Of a stretch of 64,000 nucleotides of DNA, positions 1,399 through 60,925 are shown piece after piece. Source of the DNA: Candidatus Enterousia sp. (GTDB lineage Bacteria; Pseudomonadota; Alphaproteobacteria; Rs-D84); assembly GCA_045592905.1 (NCBI GenBank), contig JAZNVR010000001.1, positions 16,219 through 80,218 of the forward strand. The letters are read 5' to 3'. Made by a program: the position numbers and the translations under genes. Position 1 is the first letter of the stretch; every line of letters begins with the position of its first letter. The notes beneath the pieces were generated by a model. It ran no database searches and was not told where the DNA came from. It saw nothing but the letters and a program-made list of their open reading frames with translations.

Positions 1399-1474
1399 TG
1401 GTGGCTAGGGACGGAATCGAACCGCCGACACAGGGATTTTCAGTCCCTTGCTCTACCAACTGAGCTACCTAGCC
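1399..1474 (-). tRNA. tRNA-Phe (anticodon GAA)
   Basis: The reverse complement reads GGCTAGGTAGCTCAGTTGG...GGTTCGATTCCGTCCCTAGCCACCA. Anticodon stem AGGGA/TCCCT encloses loop CTGAAAA. CCA is encoded. Confidence 0.85.
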
Positions 1475-8032: not shown

Positions 8033-8062
8033 AAAAAAACGTCCCAAATGGGACGTTTTTTT
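8033..8062. terminator. bidirectional terminator hairpin
   Basis: A7-CGTCCCA-AAT-GGGACG-T7, directly 3' of the OMP gene on the minus strand. Confidence 0.6.
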
Positions 8063-8675
8063 AGAACATAAATCTGATACCTACATCTGCACCAAAATTA
8101 TGTAAACCCGATTCTATATCAACATATGTATATCGGGCAGCAACATCAACTGCGAAACGTTCCATATCAAATGTCATACCCAATGTACCCATTGCAGAAA
8201 CGCGTGTTTTGTTATCACTTTGTGCTGGTACCAATGCACCATAGTGTTCAACATCTGTAAACGCCATACCAACACCCAAACCTGCAAATGGACGTATCAT
8301 ATCATAAGAACCAAATTCCATATAGTTATTCCATAACAACGTTTGCATTTTAGCTTTTACATCAATTGTACCTGCTGGGCCAAAATCTGCTTGGTCTGAT
8401 GTTTTTCCGAAATAAGTCCATTCAATTTCAGAACGAACTGTATCGCAAACTTCTAAACCTAATGCTGCACGTCCTTGAAAAATAAAATCAGTAATAGATT
8501 CTTTATCGCCATTATATTTATAGTTCAAGTTTGTATAACTCATACCGCCTCTTAAACCAATGTATGGATCCATTCCCCACATTTGCCAAGAACTGCCCTG
8601 ATCTGGATGATTAATACCCGCAAATGCAGGACATGCCATCAACACTGCCAATGTTGAAATTACTATTTTTTTCAT
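8061..8675 (-). CDS. outer-membrane beta-barrel protein (OmpA-like 8-strand / porin family)
   Basis: Signal peptide and a beta-barrel with a C-terminal Phe (GIRFMF). Confidence 0.55.
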   Translation of the reverse strand: MKKIVISTLAVLMACPAFAGINHPDQGSSWQMWGMDPYIGLRGGMSYTNLNYKYNGDKESITDFIFQGRAALGLEVCDTVRSEIEWTYFGKTSDQADFGPAGTIDVKAKMQTLLWNNYMEFGSYDMIRPFAGLGVGMAFTDVEHYGALVPAQSDNKTRVSAMGTLGMTFDMERFAVDVAARYTYVDIESGLHNFGADVGIRFMF

Positions 8676-8835: not shown

Positions 8836-8911
8836 TGGTGGACGCGCAGGGACTCGAACCCTGGACCCACTGATTAAGAGTCAGTTGCTCTACCAACTGA
8901 GCTACGCATCC
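8836..8911 (-). tRNA. tRNA-Lys (anticodon CTT)
   Basis: Reverse complement GGATGCGTAGCTCAGTTGG...TTCGAGTCCCTGCGCGTCCACCA. Anticodon stem ACTGA/TCAGT encloses loop CTCTTAA. Confidence 0.85.
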
Positions 8912-40159: not shown

Positions 40160-40327
40160 ATAAAAGTGGCGAGTGTAAATTGCCAGCACCACTTATAGAT
40201 GAATTATTATCCGCTAATTTAGAAATAAATTATAATGATTTAGATACGCAAAAACCCGAAACCGTAGTGTACAGACGTTACATAAGGGTTCGGATTTGTG
40301 TGTAGATGAATTATTATAATTTATTTA
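40160..40327. repeat. composite hairpin repeat element, copy A (two tandem units)
   Basis: Unit pattern is stem, loop containing (G)AGTGTA(A/C)A, stem, then AGATGAATTATTAT. It shares TAGATGAATTATTATAATTTATTTA, AATGATTTAGATAC and GTAGTGTACA with copy B at 54738-54916. It ends at the ftsK stop codon. Confidence 0.7.
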
Positions 40328-42580
40328 TAATATGTGGCGTTTGTTATTTGCATCCGGTGCAGACACAATACCATCTGCCTCCATCCGTTCCATAAAGCCC
40401 GCAGCCTTGTTATAACCAATTTGCAAGCGACGCTGAATATATGAAATTGTCGGCTTTTTATCACGTAAAACACATTCTTTGGCACGTGCATACAGGTCAC
40501 CATCTTTATCACCAGTTCCCCCACCAAATCCACCAGATATATCACCACCACCAGATTCCGCAGAATCTGTAACACCTTCGGCATATTCTGGTTCGCCCTG
40601 GGAACGCAAGAAATCACCAATACGTTTTAATTCCTTGTCGTCAATAAAGGCACCATGGATACGAACTGGGACACGTCCTGCCTCGCTAAACAACATATCG
40701 CCCATTGCCAACAGTTGTTCTGCACCACCTTCGCCCAGACATGTCACACTGTCAATACGGCTGCGTGCTTGAAAGGATATACGTGTTGGGAAATTCGCCT
40801 TGATAACACCGGTAATTGTTGTTGCGTCTGGGCGCTGGGTCGCCATAACAAGGTGAATACCGGCGGCACGTGCCTTTTGTGCAATACGTTGAACACACGC
40901 TTCTACATCCTTGCGGGCCAGACTCATCAGGTCTGCCACCTCGTCAATAATGATGACCATATATGGCATATCAGATAAATCAACTTCTTGGGTTTCAAAT
41001 AACAATTCCCCTGTTTCTGGATCAGTACCCACAGCAACTTGTTTTGTAACCTTTTCACCACTTTCACGTTTTTGTGCAGCAATTTCATTATAACTTTCAA
41101 TATTACGTGCATTTAATACCTGTAATTGTTTATATCTTTCTTCCATTTCACGTACAGCCCATTTCAATGCATTAACAGCTGGCTCTGGTTCCAACTTTAC
41201 AATTGGGGTAATCAAATGTGGAATATCATCCCAGAACCCAAAGTCAACACCCTTGGGGTCAATGATAATCAATTTACATTTATCAGGCGTAAAGTGATAA
41301 ACAATTGATGTAATAATTGATTGAACAAACACAGATTTACCAGACCCTGTACGCCCAGCCACCAACATATGCGGCATTTTTGCCAAATCAAAATACATCG
41401 GATTGCCACCGATATTAACACCCAAGGCCAATGGTATTTTATATTTTGATTCAACAAACAGTTCGTCTTCCATCAATCCACGATAACGCACCGTCTGACG
41501 TTTCAAGTTTACCATTTCAACGCCAATTAACTGTGTCTTTGGGATATGTGCAATACGAATACTTTCTGTTGCCATCGCACGTGTCATATCCGTAACAGTT
41601 TTATTAACATCCGCCATACGTGTTCCTTCGTCTGGCATAAATTCATACAATGTAACAATTGGTCCTGGTTTAATACCAACAACTTTGCCATGAACGCCAT
41701 ATTGCGAAAATTTTACTTCCATACTGCGGGCATTTTGTTTCAATTCTGGCGTTACAGAATATTTACTAAAATTAGAACGTTCCAAGAATTTAGTATCTGG
41801 TAATTCATACGCATTTGCACTGCGAACTTTTGGTAAACTGGTTGTAACTGCCACTTTCTTTTCCGTCTTGGCACTTTGTTTTTTCAACAAATTACGTTTC
41901 GTTTTTTCTTTGACTTTTTCTTCTGTTGGTTCGTCTGTTTTAACATTCGTTTCCGCAGAAGCGGCATACTTTACCAGACCAAATGCAGATGCCAACCAAC
42001 GCCCCCAACGTATAACAACCTTTATTCCCCAACGAATATGTTCTAATTTAACATGCAACAACATACCCGCCATAATAAAAAATCCCAACAAACATAAAAT
42101 ACCAACAATTATACATCCAACATTTCCAATCAACATAACAATATCAGCCGCAGCAACAGCCCCAAACATACCACCATATACAGATCCAGGAACAATTGCA
42201 CCAAACCCAATTGCACCCAAACACAATGCAACAAACGCACGTAACGCATTATATTCTGGGAAACTTTCTTCTAAATCTAGACCTAATGCCTTGGTTGCCC
42301 CCCATCGTATCAAACATAAAAAAACAAATAATCCTGGGATAACACCAATTGCATAGCGAACCATACCAACAAAATATCCCATAACAGACTGATTACCAAA
42401 ATTACCAGAAACATTAAAACCATCCAGATATGGGTTATACAACAACATCGCAAACGTTGCCCAAACAAACAATACAAACACAAACACACCCAATATGCGT
42501 TGTGCAAACTTCTTTAACGCCCCAGACAAACGTTCTGGCAAAAATCTTGACTTCCTTTTTCCTGTCATAATGATAGTCAT
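40325..42580 (-). CDS. ftsK: DNA translocase FtsK
   Basis: N-terminal TM segments, Walker A motif GRTGSGKS, and a C-terminal gamma winged-helix domain. Confidence 0.9.
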   Translation of the reverse strand: MTIIMTGKRKSRFLPERLSGALKKFAQRILGVFVFVLFVWATFAMLLYNPYLDGFNVSGNFGNQSVMGYFVGMVRYAIGVIPGLFVFLCLIRWGATKALGLDLEESFPEYNALRAFVALCLGAIGFGAIVPGSVYGGMFGAVAAADIVMLIGNVGCIIVGILCLLGFFIMAGMLLHVKLEHIRWGIKVVIRWGRWLASAFGLVKYAASAETNVKTDEPTEEKVKEKTKRNLLKKQSAKTEKKVAVTTSLPKVRSANAYELPDTKFLERSNFSKYSVTPELKQNARSMEVKFSQYGVHGKVVGIKPGPIVTLYEFMPDEGTRMADVNKTVTDMTRAMATESIRIAHIPKTQLIGVEMVNLKRQTVRYRGLMEDELFVESKYKIPLALGVNIGGNPMYFDLAKMPHMLVAGRTGSGKSVFVQSIITSIVYHFTPDKCKLIIIDPKGVDFGFWDDIPHLITPIVKLEPEPAVNALKWAVREMEERYKQLQVLNARNIESYNEIAAQKRESGEKVTKQVAVGTDPETGELLFETQEVDLSDMPYMVIIIDEVADLMSLARKDVEACVQRIAQKARAAGIHLVMATQRPDATTITGVIKANFPTRISFQARSRIDSVTCLGEGGAEQLLAMGDMLFSEAGRVPVRIHGAFIDDKELKRIGDFLRSQGEPEYAEGVTDSAESGGGDISGGFGGGTGDKDGDLYARAKECVLRDKKPTISYIQRRLQIGYNKAAGFMERMEADGIVSAPDANNKRHIL

Positions 42581-53985: not shown

Positions 53986-54723
53986 ATGCATAAAATATTA
54001 TCTACGTTTTTAATCAGTGCTTTTATTGCCTTGCCTGTGTCATCATATGCAAATCAACTGGAACACGACACATCAGATCCACTTTATCTGTTGGCCCAAG
54101 AAGAAATATTAAGTCAAACATCTATATCTTATTGGAATCACATGCTGCGTATTGGCCAAGGCCTTTCATATGGAATGAACGAACGCCTGTCTATTGGTGC
54201 AAACATTCATTATCAACATCACTTTAACGGCAATCAAGATGGATTTTCTGCAATTGATTTGGGTGCAACATATCGTATGACACGTGCAAGCGATACAGAT
54301 TCACATATGATTTCAGACCTGTTGTTCGGATTTAAGTTTGGCGGCAGTTCACATGTACGCACACCATATTATGCAGATTCAACATATTATGCAGGTATTC
54401 GTTTTGGTCGTCAATGGGCCGGGTTAACATTGGCAGCAACCGTAAAATCCAGTTGGGTTTTTGATGAAACACGTGGCATGTCATTTATTGATTTTATGCC
54501 AGAAGCATATTTTAGAATTGCCCCAGATTGGCGTATTGGTGGTGGCTTTACAATTCGCAAAGCAACCAACAACGACCCACAAACAGGCGATGATTATGAC
54601 CAAGAATGGTTGCATACGAAACTTGTACGCCAATATGGTCGCACACAATATATCGGACATATTGACTATGAATTTGAAAGCGACGAAATACAACTGGGCG
54701 GAAAAGTAAATATTGTATTTTAA
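53986..54723 (+). CDS. outer-membrane beta-barrel protein
   Basis: Signal peptide. Ends in NIVF. Confidence 0.5.
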   Translation: MHKILSTFLISAFIALPVSSYANQLEHDTSDPLYLLAQEEILSQTSISYWNHMLRIGQGLSYGMNERLSIGANIHYQHHFNGNQDGFSAIDLGATYRMTRASDTDSHMISDLLFGFKFGGSSHVRTPYYADSTYYAGIRFGRQWAGLTLAATVKSSWVFDETRGMSFIDFMPEAYFRIAPDWRIGGGFTIRKATNNDPQTGDDYDQEWLHTKLVRQYGRTQYIGHIDYEFESDEIQLGGKVNIVF

Positions 54724-54737
54724 ACAAAAGAAAAAAA

Positions 54738-54916
54738 CGATGGCGTAGTGTAACGTGATATTACACAAGCCATCGTAACCATCCACAGATGAATTATCAT
54801 CCGATAAATAAAATAAATTAGAATGATTTAGATACAAGTAATGCCGACAGTGTAGTGTACATAACGCTACATGAACTGTCGGCACCGCTTGTAGATGAAT
54901 TATTATAATTTATTTA
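54738..54916. repeat. composite hairpin repeat element, copy B (two tandem units)
   Basis: Unit 1 is CGATGGC[GTAGTGTAACGTGATATTACACAA]GCCATCG plus CAGATGAATTATCAT. Unit 2 is GCCGACAGT[GTAGTGTACATAACGCTACATGAA]ACTGTCGGC plus GTAGATGAATTATTATAATTTATTTA. It overlaps the last 4 codons and the stop of trxB. Confidence 0.7.
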
Positions 54917-55799
54917 AGTATGCGATTGCATCCATACCTGCACTGCACCCTGTTCCAACAGCTGTTGCAATTTGCATTTTTAAATCACTATGCACATCAC
55001 CGGCAACAAACATACCATCTGGTAATGCGGTTGGTGCCAAACGCCCCAACCCATCACGTTTAATTTCTTCGGATAAAAAGTCAGTATTCGCCTCGTGTCC
55101 AATTGCGACAAAAACACCATCAACAATTATTTGTTCGCCACTTGTTGTTGTAACAACCAATTCGCCATCTGACGAATCTGGCTTTTCAGCGATTTCTGCC
55201 AAATCTGTATTAAACAAACATTTAATATTTTCACGTTCTGCAACACGATCACGCAAAACTGCTTCGGCCCGGAAAAATTCAGACTTACGATAAACGATTT
55301 TAACTTCTTTTGCCAAGTCTGCCAAATACAACGCATCATTTAACGCACTGTTTCCGCCCCCCATAACAATAACTGTTTTACCACTATAAAAGAACCCATC
55401 ACATGTCGCACAATACGAAACACCACGTCCCATTAACTCACGTGCACCTGTTATCTCCAACTTTCGTGGACTGGCACCAGTTGCAACAATAACTGTTTTA
55501 CCAACATATTCTTTGTTGTTTGCAGTAACGACAAAAACACCATCTGAATTTTTTTCAACATTTGTCGCAACAACAAATTCAACTGTTGCCCCAAATGTTT
55601 CTGCCTGATTTTTCATAAATTCGGCCAGTTCTGCCCCACTGCCAGCCCAACCCGGATAATTTTCCAGCGTGGCAATTCCAGCCATTTGACCACCCAACCT
55701 GTCGCCACCCAAAACAATTGTTTTTTTATTTGCACGTGCCGCATACAACGCTGCCGTTAATCCAGCAGGTCCAGAGCCTAAAATAATTACATCATACAT
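54903..55799 (-). CDS. trxB: thioredoxin-disulfide reductase
   Basis: FAD/NAD(P) motifs and the redox-active CATCDG. Confidence 0.85.
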   Translation of the reverse strand: MYDVIILGSGPAGLTAALYAARANKKTIVLGGDRLGGQMAGIATLENYPGWAGSGAELAEFMKNQAETFGATVEFVVATNVEKNSDGVFVVTANNKEYVGKTVIVATGASPRKLEITGARELMGRGVSYCATCDGFFYSGKTVIVMGGGNSALNDALYLADLAKEVKIVYRKSEFFRAEAVLRDRVAERENIKCLFNTDLAEIAEKPDSSDGELVVTTTSGEQIIVDGVFVAIGHEANTDFLSEEIKRDGLGRLAPTALPDGMFVAGDVHSDLKMQIATAVGTGCSAGMDAIAYLNKL

Positions 55800-57404: not shown

Positions 57405-57438
57405 ACTAAAAAAACTCCCATCTGGGAGTTTTTTTTAT
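57405..57438. terminator. bidirectional rho-independent terminator
   Basis: A7-CTCCCA-TC-TGGGAG-T8, between convergent genes. Confidence 0.7.
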
Positions 57439-60895: not shown

Positions 60896-60925
60896 AGAAA
60901 ACTGCCAATACGGCAGTTTTTTTTA
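60896..60925. terminator. bidirectional terminator
   Basis: AAACTGCC-AATAC-GGCAG-T8. Confidence 0.65.

Follow-up and report, generated by a model that had tools for sequence, protein, structure and literature searches.

The window is a stretch of 64,000 nucleotides from Candidatus Enterousia sp., in which an entire repeat unit, designated copy B, lies directly behind the trxB gene and overlaps with its 3′ end. A second copy, copy A, lies behind ftsK. The layout of the two loci is as follows.

53986-54723, plus strand: convergent ORF of 245 aa, no Pfam match, with its stop 14 nt before hairpin 1
54724-54737, minus strand: U-rich tail UUUUUUUCUUUUGU on the trxB strand, immediately after hairpin 1 (sequence and minus-strand fold)
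54738-54775, plus strand: hairpin 1 of a decayed distal unit (partial covariance-model match, model positions 37-74, E 0.07; fold)
54776-54807, plus strand: right-arm remnant of a second, distal unit (CAGATGAATTATCATCC) and linker GATAAATA (direct-repeat family D5)
54808-54916, plus strand: copy B, full gene-proximal repeat unit (covariance-model match of 112.2 bits, E 3.7e-23, whole model covered)
54809-54835, plus strand: left (gene-distal) terminal inverted repeat TAAAATAAATTAGAATGATTTAGATAC, near-invariant in the 24-unit alignment
54843-54883, plus strand: GC-rich stem and apex, GCCGACAGT (54843-54851) pairing with ACTGTCGGC (54875-54883)
54852-54874, plus strand: conserved apex GTAGTGTACATAACGCTACATGA inside the GC-rich stem
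54891-54916, plus strand: right (gene-proximal) terminal inverted repeat GTAGATGAATTATTATAATTTATTTA, with a 25-mer that is exact in both window copies
54903-55799, minus strand: trxB, thioredoxin reductase (ORF and translation; homologue names; Pyr_redox Pfam domains)
40166-40219, plus strand: decayed distal unit of copy A, consisting of hairpin GTGGCGAGTGTAAATTGCCAGCACCAC (40166-40192) and arm remnant/linker (40193-40219)
40220-40327, plus strand: copy A, full repeat unit (covariance-model match of 103.1 bits, E 4.8e-21; inverted repeat I1)
40325-42580, minus strand: ftsK, with its stop TAA (40325-40327) at the element junction and the C-terminus ...KRHIL

The plus orientation of copy B was set by the covariance model, and the adjoining trxB gene is on the opposite strand. 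The unit is 109 nt in length and can be aligned with 23 other units. In the consensus fold its left and right repeats are paired, and the G.U pairs that this involves on the plus strand are conserved. The right repeat overlaps with the codons and stop codons of trxB at 54900-54916. The TrxB sequence ends with ...AIAYLNKL followed by a TAA, a second in-frame TAA lies at 54900-54902, and the last 14 nt of trxB (54903-54916; part of an L codon, N, K, L, and the stop) are within the repeat. The reverse complement of the right repeat, TAAATAAATTATAATAA, has TAA in three frames, and the earlier note was right that this gene-proximal end closes the trxB frame. On the distal side, the loop of hairpin 1 begins with the apex motif GTAGTGTA, and the distal terminal repeat is absent. 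The stem of CGATGGC (54738-54744) with GCCATCG (54769-54775) and the inner GTGTAA/TTACAC pairing of the loop, both of which had been described before, are present, and an added A-T pair extends the stem to 8 bp. All sequence statements of the earlier note hold. The type of remnant/linker junction seen at 54776-54807 was also found in loci L018, L023, and L008. Since the 245-aa ORF stops 14 nt before hairpin 1, the composite element occupies the entire intergenic space between this ORF and trxB (54724-54902). As far as the predicted fold can tell, hairpin 1 and the U-rich tail look like an intrinsic terminator of trxB; a simple terminator scan passes over hairpin 1, whose loop is above the limit of the scan. 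The copy B region folds far better than shuffled sequences (z = -13.4 for the plus strand and -8.9 for the minus strand).

A covariance model built from 24 units found only two full units in the 64 kb, at 54808-54916 and 40220-40327, and the two regions are alignable over about 180 nt (z = -5.9 for the plus strand of the copy A region). Each window copy is a composite of an intact gene-proximal unit and a distal unit decayed to a hairpin and an arm remnant, and the decayed hairpins of both copies are directly followed by a U-run on the gene strand (the ftsK strand in the case of copy A), which is terminator-like. A close relative, L155, has a less decayed distal unit with an intact apex. The 25-nt block GTAGATGAATTATTATAATTTATTT at 54891-54915 is identical at 40302-40326 and, as stated in the earlier note, is used there in a different frame at the ftsK stop (TAA at 40325-40327, minus strand). 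That the two copies resemble each other merely as coincidental A/T-rich sequences has next to no probability. The terminal block is indeed A/T-rich and the native trxB end (TTAAATAA...) has a microhomology of 7-8 nt with it, but no chance match of the 25-mer is expected (100 shuffles gave 0), the E-value of the covariance model is about 1e-23, and more than 100 related units with compensatory stems exist.

How widespread is this repeat? A first scan of a genome collection with a 21-mer query yielded 25 loci, nearly all of them in Candidatus Enterousia or in uncultured gut alphaproteobacterial MAGs; L002 and L005 were chance matches with no element there. Searched with the covariance model, the fetched loci gave more units, some of them of a second terminal-repeat subfamily, and a metagenome scan with an apex pattern added 37 further units with other terminal repeats, all confirmed by the model. 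In each of the subfamilies from the metagenome scan, the left repeat complements the right repeat. In total, 106 units were validated in the window and the fetched loci. Because a loose regular-expression scan for the apex brought in many unrelated sequences, all counts given here are of units validated with the covariance model. A single apex match in viral contigs (L034) was not confirmed by the model and is a chance match.

In the 24-unit alignment, the order from left to right is T(A)n-TAAATTAGAATGATTTAGATAC, a short spacer, a GC-rich stem arm of 9-14 bp, the apex, the complementary stem arm, and GTAGATGAATTATTATAATTTA(T)n. The units are about 108 bp in length and non-coding, with stops in all frames at both ends. 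The apex, GTAGTGTACA-N5-TACATGA, is invariant across the 24 units. The consensus fold (RNAalifold) has 43 pairs, 16 of which show compensatory double changes, all in the GC stem; the GC-rich stem differs between copies by fully compensatory replacement. The AT-rich terminal inverted repeats are imperfect and 25-30 bp in length, and their left and right sides co-vary across at least 15 subfamilies. The apex starts with GTAG, located 3′ of the GC stem, in subfamily 1 and with YAGAT in other subfamilies. Among the validated units, the apex stays constant and the terminal repeats and stems vary, the constancy being partly imposed in the metagenome set since that scan chose for the apex. MITEs usually show the opposite pattern. 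A search of the whole window against Rfam at the gathering threshold found two tRNAs only, and a search of the element at an E-value threshold gave weak chance matches only (plasmid RNAIII, which at 23 bits falls short of the threshold of 60, and miRNA precursors). Literature searches on the element sequences and on repeats in Enterousia papers returned nothing relevant. This palindromic repeat family, previously undescribed, occurs in Candidatus Enterousia and related Rs-D84 gut alphaproteobacteria. Enterousia genomes are 0.75-1.0 Mb in size with a coding density of about 90% (PMC12306168).

Does the element replace the C-termini of its host proteins? It had been proposed that the codons LNKL and both TAA stops of trxB are element sequence. 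Among 120 TrxB homologues of 81-92% identity, the tails read ...LNKL, LNKN, LNKI, LNKQQ, LNSRS, and similar, with LNK conserved in most. The only element-free trxB, that of L029, has the 3′ end TTC TTA AAT TCC AGG GCT TAA and thus ends with ...AFLNSRA* rather than ...AYLNKL*. An ...AYLNKL* end in an element-free relative was what the earlier note had named as refuting its reading, and L029 does not show it. Since L029 has TTA AAT without the element, the L and N of TrxB are native. In L026, L027, and L081, which carry another repeat subfamily, the L and N codons are outside the element, and in subfamily 2a loci the element begins after CTT AAT. On the other hand, the residue after LNK tracks the repeat subfamily: AAATTATAA gives KL* (AAA TTA TAA), AAAAATTAA gives KN* (AAA AAT TAA), and AAAATCTAA gives KI* (AAA ATC TAA). 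This covariation argues that the last residue of TrxB and the stops are derived from the element, while the K remains ambiguous because LNK is conserved in most homologues. Thus, the proposal holds for the final residue and both stops but not for L and N. Nor does replacement extend to FtsK, whose ...KRHIL is kept in orthologues down to 63% identity, including element-free ones; the FtsK C-terminus is native according to these alignments, with at most the AA of the stop shared with the element. L028 has a trxB end of ...AAT AAG CAA CAG TAA followed by the element, and the window junction may be the product of a 14-nt deletion between two TAAATAA repeats from an L028-like start. A 6-nt erosion of such a junction was found between the orthologous sites of L024 (ARIKD*) and L001 (ARVKK*), the stop of the latter lying within the element.

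The position behind a stop codon is common to almost the whole family. The 106 validated units include 96 that are nearest the gene in their array, and in 92 of the 96 a long ORF on the opposite strand ends from -9 to +11 nt of the right edge (two are at +46, the ORFs reading 46 nt into the element). The stop codon is TAA in 84 of the 92. These ORFs belong to 36 gene families, trxB being the commonest (10 loci and the window) and ftsK being represented three times. Among the four exceptions, L019 lies at a contig end, L011:5118 and L152:4243 are apparently distal array units more than 70 nt from the next unit, and L036 has no clear explanation. The unit of L028, whose core is inverted relative to the gene, is outside the 96. 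The left edge lies 42-220 nt from the start of the downstream gene or touches the stop of a convergent gene, and a long same-strand ORF ends at the left edge of 12 units only. In multi-unit loci, all units of a locus have one orientation. When gene-linked and replication-linked polarity were compared by the local majority gene strand at convergent sites, the count was 10 versus 12, an even split that short loci centred on a convergent junction show by construction and that carries no information on the question. About 23 gene families carry the element in several species; ancient retained insertions could explain this as well as ongoing mobility could, which weighs against the explanation preferred below.

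What else occupies this position? A simple terminator lies no more than 45 nt behind the stop in 12 window genes, and in 9 of them it starts 0-6 nt after the stop. Likewise, element-free orthologous sites have a plain terminator at the stop (trxB of L029; ftsK of L030 and L156). The element therefore sits in the terminator slot of a compact genome. The earlier note had described the element as tolerated only at gene termini; this description leaves the near-absolute polarity unexplained, and native terminators, too, start 0-6 nt after stops. In a full unit, no U-tract adjoins the GC stem and the terminator scan finds none. A single full unit therefore does not look like a canonical intrinsic terminator, an observation that also speaks against the preferred explanation. 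Scans for sigma-70 promoters and terminators gave nothing above the shuffle expectation in either window copy.

The earlier note had pointed to empty sites in relatives as a check, and such sites exist. Of seven ftsK sites, those of the window and L155 are filled and five (L030-L033 and L156) are empty, as confirmed by an unfiltered covariance-model search. The five element-free relatives have FtsK proteins of 74-86% identity and ordinary spacers of 78-358 nt, the promoter-proximal part of which is recognisably homologous to that of the window. In the window and L155, whose FtsK sequences are 98% identical, the composite is placed exactly at the ftsK stop. At trxB, most relatives are filled, and the one empty site is that of L029. 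Orthologues of genes carrying the element elsewhere were sought in the window as further empty sites, and none is present there. The occurrence of orthologous ftsK and trxB sites without the element indicates dispensable DNA of an inserted type, and, together with the dispersal of the family, agrees with the miniature-mobile-element behaviour proposed in the earlier note. The differences between filled and empty sites may reflect gain or loss alike. No consistent direct repeat was found in the flanks as a target-site duplication; the unit ends are A/T homopolymer runs of variable length.

The units seem to be replaced and exchanged. L155 and the window share flanks and terminal repeats, while their GC stems are completely different. 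Copies in the same genome tend to have common stems (L001, L003, and L012; also L009 and L024), and orthologous sites in different genomes have different stems. Hybrid units with arms from different stem types were found in L019, L022, L011, L013, L018, L027, and others, apex-truncated units in L155 and L020, and an apex-deleted unit in L025. Damaged units are mostly gene-distal, and gene-proximal units are almost always intact. Gene order beside the units differs between relatives, and the block of gene and unit of L008 is located elsewhere in another genome (L018, L023). This turnover pattern fits ectopic gene conversion and recombination among copies, to which repeated insertion at the stop, with older units pushed outward, may have contributed.

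The hairpin is asymmetric between the strands. Of 87 distinct units, 84 fold better, by about 10 kcal/mol, on the strand antisense to the abutting gene (mean -49.7 versus -39.7 kcal/mol for the gene-sense strand). Where the arms differ, the antisense strand has G.T and the gene-sense strand A.C, a rule that at least 15 terminal-repeat subfamilies follow. A mutational strand bias was considered as the cause and was rejected: the window has a C-rich plus strand (GC skew about -0.2), on which the element arms are G-rich, and an asymmetry opposing the skew of the genome makes mutational bias an unlikely cause. The asymmetry points to selection on a single-stranded antisense form, RNA or DNA. It may come from an antisense-transcription insulator, from a folded-DNA substrate of a strand-specific enzyme, or from selection weakening the mRNA hairpin. 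If the element acted purely within the mRNA 3′ UTR, the antisense strand would not be expected to have the stronger hairpin, and this too runs counter to the preferred explanation.

The family resembles several known systems without being identical to any. Like MITEs, the units are shorter than 300 bp, non-coding, and dispersed in many copies, with terminal inverted repeats and presence/absence polymorphism. REPs lie close to the 3′ ends of upstream ORFs and at variable distances from downstream ORFs, and supply stop codons (PMC3733652). The Enterousia units are similar to REPs, BIMEs, and REPINs in being dispersed extragenic palindromes that occur as single, dimeric, or clustered copies with genome-specific master sequences, in lying no more than 20 bp from where the upstream ORF ends, with termini that often give the stop codon (PMC3733652), and in having a GTAG motif. 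Their location is thus that of REPs. In contrast, REPs are GC palindromes of 20-40 bp, whereas these units are about 108 bp with AT-rich terminal inverted repeats of 25-30 bp; the unpaired 5′ GTAG/CGTC tag of REPs was not found, GTAG being placed in the apex, 3′ of the GC stem. BIMEs alternate in orientation, whereas the polarity of the Enterousia units relative to the gene is near-absolute, and no RAYT gene of the REPIN-RAYT type was found in the fetched flanks.

Correia elements of Neisseria have a characteristic 26-bp terminal repeat, TATAGTGGATTAA.... The Enterousia units show no sequence resemblance to them and no Rfam match above threshold, and differ from them in that Correia elements have a TA target duplication and an IHF site and occur in both orientations, whereas the Enterousia family conserves the apex and diversifies the terminal repeats. 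The likeness to Correia (CREE/NEMIS), RUP, and ERIC elements lies in the size of about 100-155 bp, the terminal inverted repeats, the long RNA hairpin, the stops in all frames, and the lack of a known linked transposase (PMC2229807). Those elements are also co-transcribed with neighbouring genes (PMC2229807), as the Enterousia units presumably are. In Coxiella burnetii, QMITE1 and QMITE2 extend 1-50 bp into the 3′ ends of functional genes, whose C-terminal residues and stops they alter or supply (PMC5896051). They are likewise small non-autonomous palindromic elements of a reduced or host-associated genome, and an indel can carry the stop across the element boundary in either direction, enhC being an example (PMC5896051). 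However, their sequences are unrelated, they come with target duplications and occur at other genomic places too (PMC5896051), and they are not reported to have a strict polarity or a conserved apex. Rickettsia palindromic elements are also palindromic, tolerated in contact with coding sequences of a reduced alphaproteobacterial genome, and lack a known transposase, but they are in frame inside genes and are translated, whereas the Enterousia units lie behind the stop and close the reading frame.

Taken as a whole, the explanation that I consider probable is that copy B is a member of a non-coding, MITE/REP-like palindromic repeat family of about 108 bp that is specific to Enterousia / Rs-D84. 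The units occupy, in one fixed polarity, the slot behind the stop where terminators of an A-tract, a hairpin, and a T-tract otherwise go. With TAA in three frames in the gene-proximal repeat, small junction deletions just shift the stop into the element. Copies are replaced in place, with hybrid and apex-truncated units gathering gene-distally in arrays. The element may be selfish or dispensable DNA and is probably transcribed together with the upstream gene as its 3′ UTR; its long hairpin may stabilise or insulate the 3′ end, while the decayed distal hairpin with its T-tract would be the actual intrinsic terminator in both window copies. Spread and homogenisation may be due to a strand-specific enzyme, to gene conversion between copies, or to both. 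Against this explanation, no transposase or autonomous parent element was found in the fetched loci, which are up to 15 kb, and no clear target-site duplication, the ends being A/T runs.

Could the element instead be a functional cis-acting RNA or DNA module, selected as a 3′-end insulator or terminator or as a modulator of translation termination, rather than selfish DNA? This is possible on a tentative footing, as is its specific form in which antisense or divergent transcription would be stopped before entering the gene. The exact terminator-slot position, the recurrence of the same genes across species, and the intactness of gene-proximal units beside decaying distal ones would suit such a module, and an antisense transcript would carry the stabler hairpin, with a T-run after it at the gene-side end. 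E. coli REPs located within 15 nt of a stop modulate translation termination, and the stalling of ribosomes by REPs at this distance is cited in PMC12306157. But orthologous sites without the element manage with ordinary terminators, tandem arrays, decayed copies, and rearrangement breakpoints are as expected of selfish repeats, and a single unit lacks the canonical stem plus U-tract. A rather doubtful reading takes the element as a structure-specific ssDNA site whose apex (GTAG and a mini-hairpin) is recognised or cut by a dedicated strand-specific enzyme; the enzyme, with equal doubt, could be a HUH/RAYT-like Y1 transposase or a folded-DNA recombinase as at integron attC. Such a mechanism would account for the polarity, the absence of target duplications, and the exchange at the apex. 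It is favoured by an apex that at least 15 terminal-repeat subfamilies have in common despite their differing stems and terminal repeats, by the fixed orientation, by arms with G.T on one strand only, by the lack of a visible target-site duplication, and by the proposed mobilisation of GTAG-tagged REPs by RAYTs (PMC3733652). Breakpoints at the apex are seen in the hybrids of L019, L022, and L011, the truncations of L155 and L020, the apex-deleted L025, and the inverted core of L028, although generic palindrome instability can also give these. In the fetched loci, however, no RAYT or transposase lies near any unit and no gene is flanked by an inverted pair of units; every multi-unit locus has one orientation; the motif, where it reads GTAG, is 3′ of the GC stem and not 5′ as in REPs; and the strand exposed at the fork in genes co-oriented with replication is the gene-sense strand, which folds more weakly.

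Integron-type attC sites marking gene cassettes come to mind as well, since attC sites are imperfect palindromes directly behind ORFs in a fixed orientation, with a functional folded strand antisense to the ORF and repeats that are homogeneous within a species. The imperfect palindromes of about 108 bp described here share these traits, including the favoured antisense fold; some loci (L014) even have a gene-unit-gene-unit pattern, and the L008 block of gene and unit lies at another place in another genome (L018, L023). This identity is nevertheless very improbable and is contradicted by the features tested. The ends read AAAATAAATT... and ...AATTTATTTT and lack the RYYYAAC/GTTRRRY core sites (R″/R′) of attC; the conserved part is the apex and not the base, whereas the tip of attC is variable; trxB and ftsK, unlike the promoterless mobile cassettes arrayed next to intI and attI, are housekeeping genes that keep their neighbours whether the unit is there or not (serS beside trxB, and a PAP2 gene upstream of ftsK); and no intI gene or integron integrase was seen beside the arrays. 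A further reading is unlikely: the units would be substrates of a strand-specific, structure-reading enzyme that recognises the conserved apex hairpin on the strand antisense to the gene and places or exchanges units precisely at stops, which would make them stop-codon-homing mobile hairpins with swappable stems. If this is true, the units would double as recombination hot spots that reshuffle gene order in 1-Mb genomes.

Palindromic repeats that supply stop codons are already known; what is new here is how strictly the units are oriented, an apex that is conserved among varying terminal repeats, and a hairpin that differs in strength between the strands. The apex, the polarity, and the G.T asymmetry on one strand only are handles toward a new recognition mechanism or 3′-end function. 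For the annotation of Enterousia MAGs, the family accounts for C-termini that vary, for contig breaks, and for breakpoints in synteny. The repeats visibly shape protein C-termini, the TrxB tails being KL, KN, or KI by repeat subfamily, and with their stop-rich ends they would protect genes from the erosion by deletion that reduced genomes typically undergo. Mobile-type repeats persist even in gut symbiont genomes of about 0.9 Mb and 90% coding density by way of the one slot, behind the stop codon, where a hairpin is expected.

The minus strand of the window carries 36 of the 57 putative genes, and TAA serves as the stop codon in 44 of the 57. Between 4 kb and 56 kb there is a strongly negative GC skew (about -0.1 to -0.3), which falls away to almost zero in the stretch from 56 to 64 kb. 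When the whole window was searched against Rfam at the gathering threshold, there were no matches beyond two tRNA genes:

1402-1474, minus strand, tRNA gene
8839-8911, minus strand, tRNA gene

Native terminators consisting of an A-tract, a GC hairpin, and a T-tract, and thus bidirectional, were found at the following positions and at other 3′ ends:

8036-8063, native bidirectional terminator
57410-57437, native bidirectional terminator; the stop TAA at 57435-57437 is part of its A-tract
60898-60925, native bidirectional terminator

These terminators correspond to D7, a loose repeat family from the direct-repeat search of the window, and start 0-6 nucleotides after the stop codon.

Many metagenome matches to the apex pattern share a conserved context, TAGTAATTGTATAA-GTAGTGTACAAGAAATACATGA-GGACTCTATCAAGT, which is unrelated to the units (loci L038, L045, L057, L061, L064, L074, L078, L083, L087-L089, L092, L098, L108, and others). 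Since pairing arms are absent around this context and the covariance model does not match it, it represents a different conserved sequence, from other organisms.

At the same ftsK site, a composite is present both in the window (40166-40327) and in L155 (1368-1570; FtsK 98% identical), while the GC stem of the L155 composite is entirely different from that of the window copy. The distal unit in L155 is less decayed than its window counterpart and ends right after the apex. In L028 (2397-2508), beside a trxB orthologue ending in FLNKQQ, the outer repeats of the element have diverged, and its core (stem and apex) has the inverted orientation with respect to the gene. Thus, the rule of fixed polarity is broken there; the 96 counted units do not include this element. 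In L025 (3156-3206), the apex of one unit has been precisely deleted, leaving a perfect palindrome, CGGTGCCGGCACCG, flanked by subfamily-2-type arms.

Several of the genes that adjoin a unit are short ORFs and have a Cys-rich C-terminus; their products may be small peptides that are secreted or modified:

L006, L011, L135, ending in CCPKSGGDCFPPIK
L025, L096, L144, L153, ending in VKNAVNCCIE
L015, L130, ending in VYDCPCK

In one MAG (L008:2414-4543), a 313-aa gene and a 189-aa gene are separated by a block made up of a unit and a 531-aa repeat-protein gene. A second MAG (L018:2395-2596 and L023:7498-7705) has only a single array between the 313-aa and 189-aa genes, and its 531-aa gene is located elsewhere. 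The units here mark a rearrangement breakpoint. The serS-trxB synteny is conserved, but each of the relatives examined has a different gene downstream of trxB (L026-L029 and window 53986-54723), including an OMP-like ORF, DnaJ/XerC-like genes, hypothetical genes, and a BipA-like GTPase gene. The 3′ end of trxB is a recurrent synteny breakpoint.
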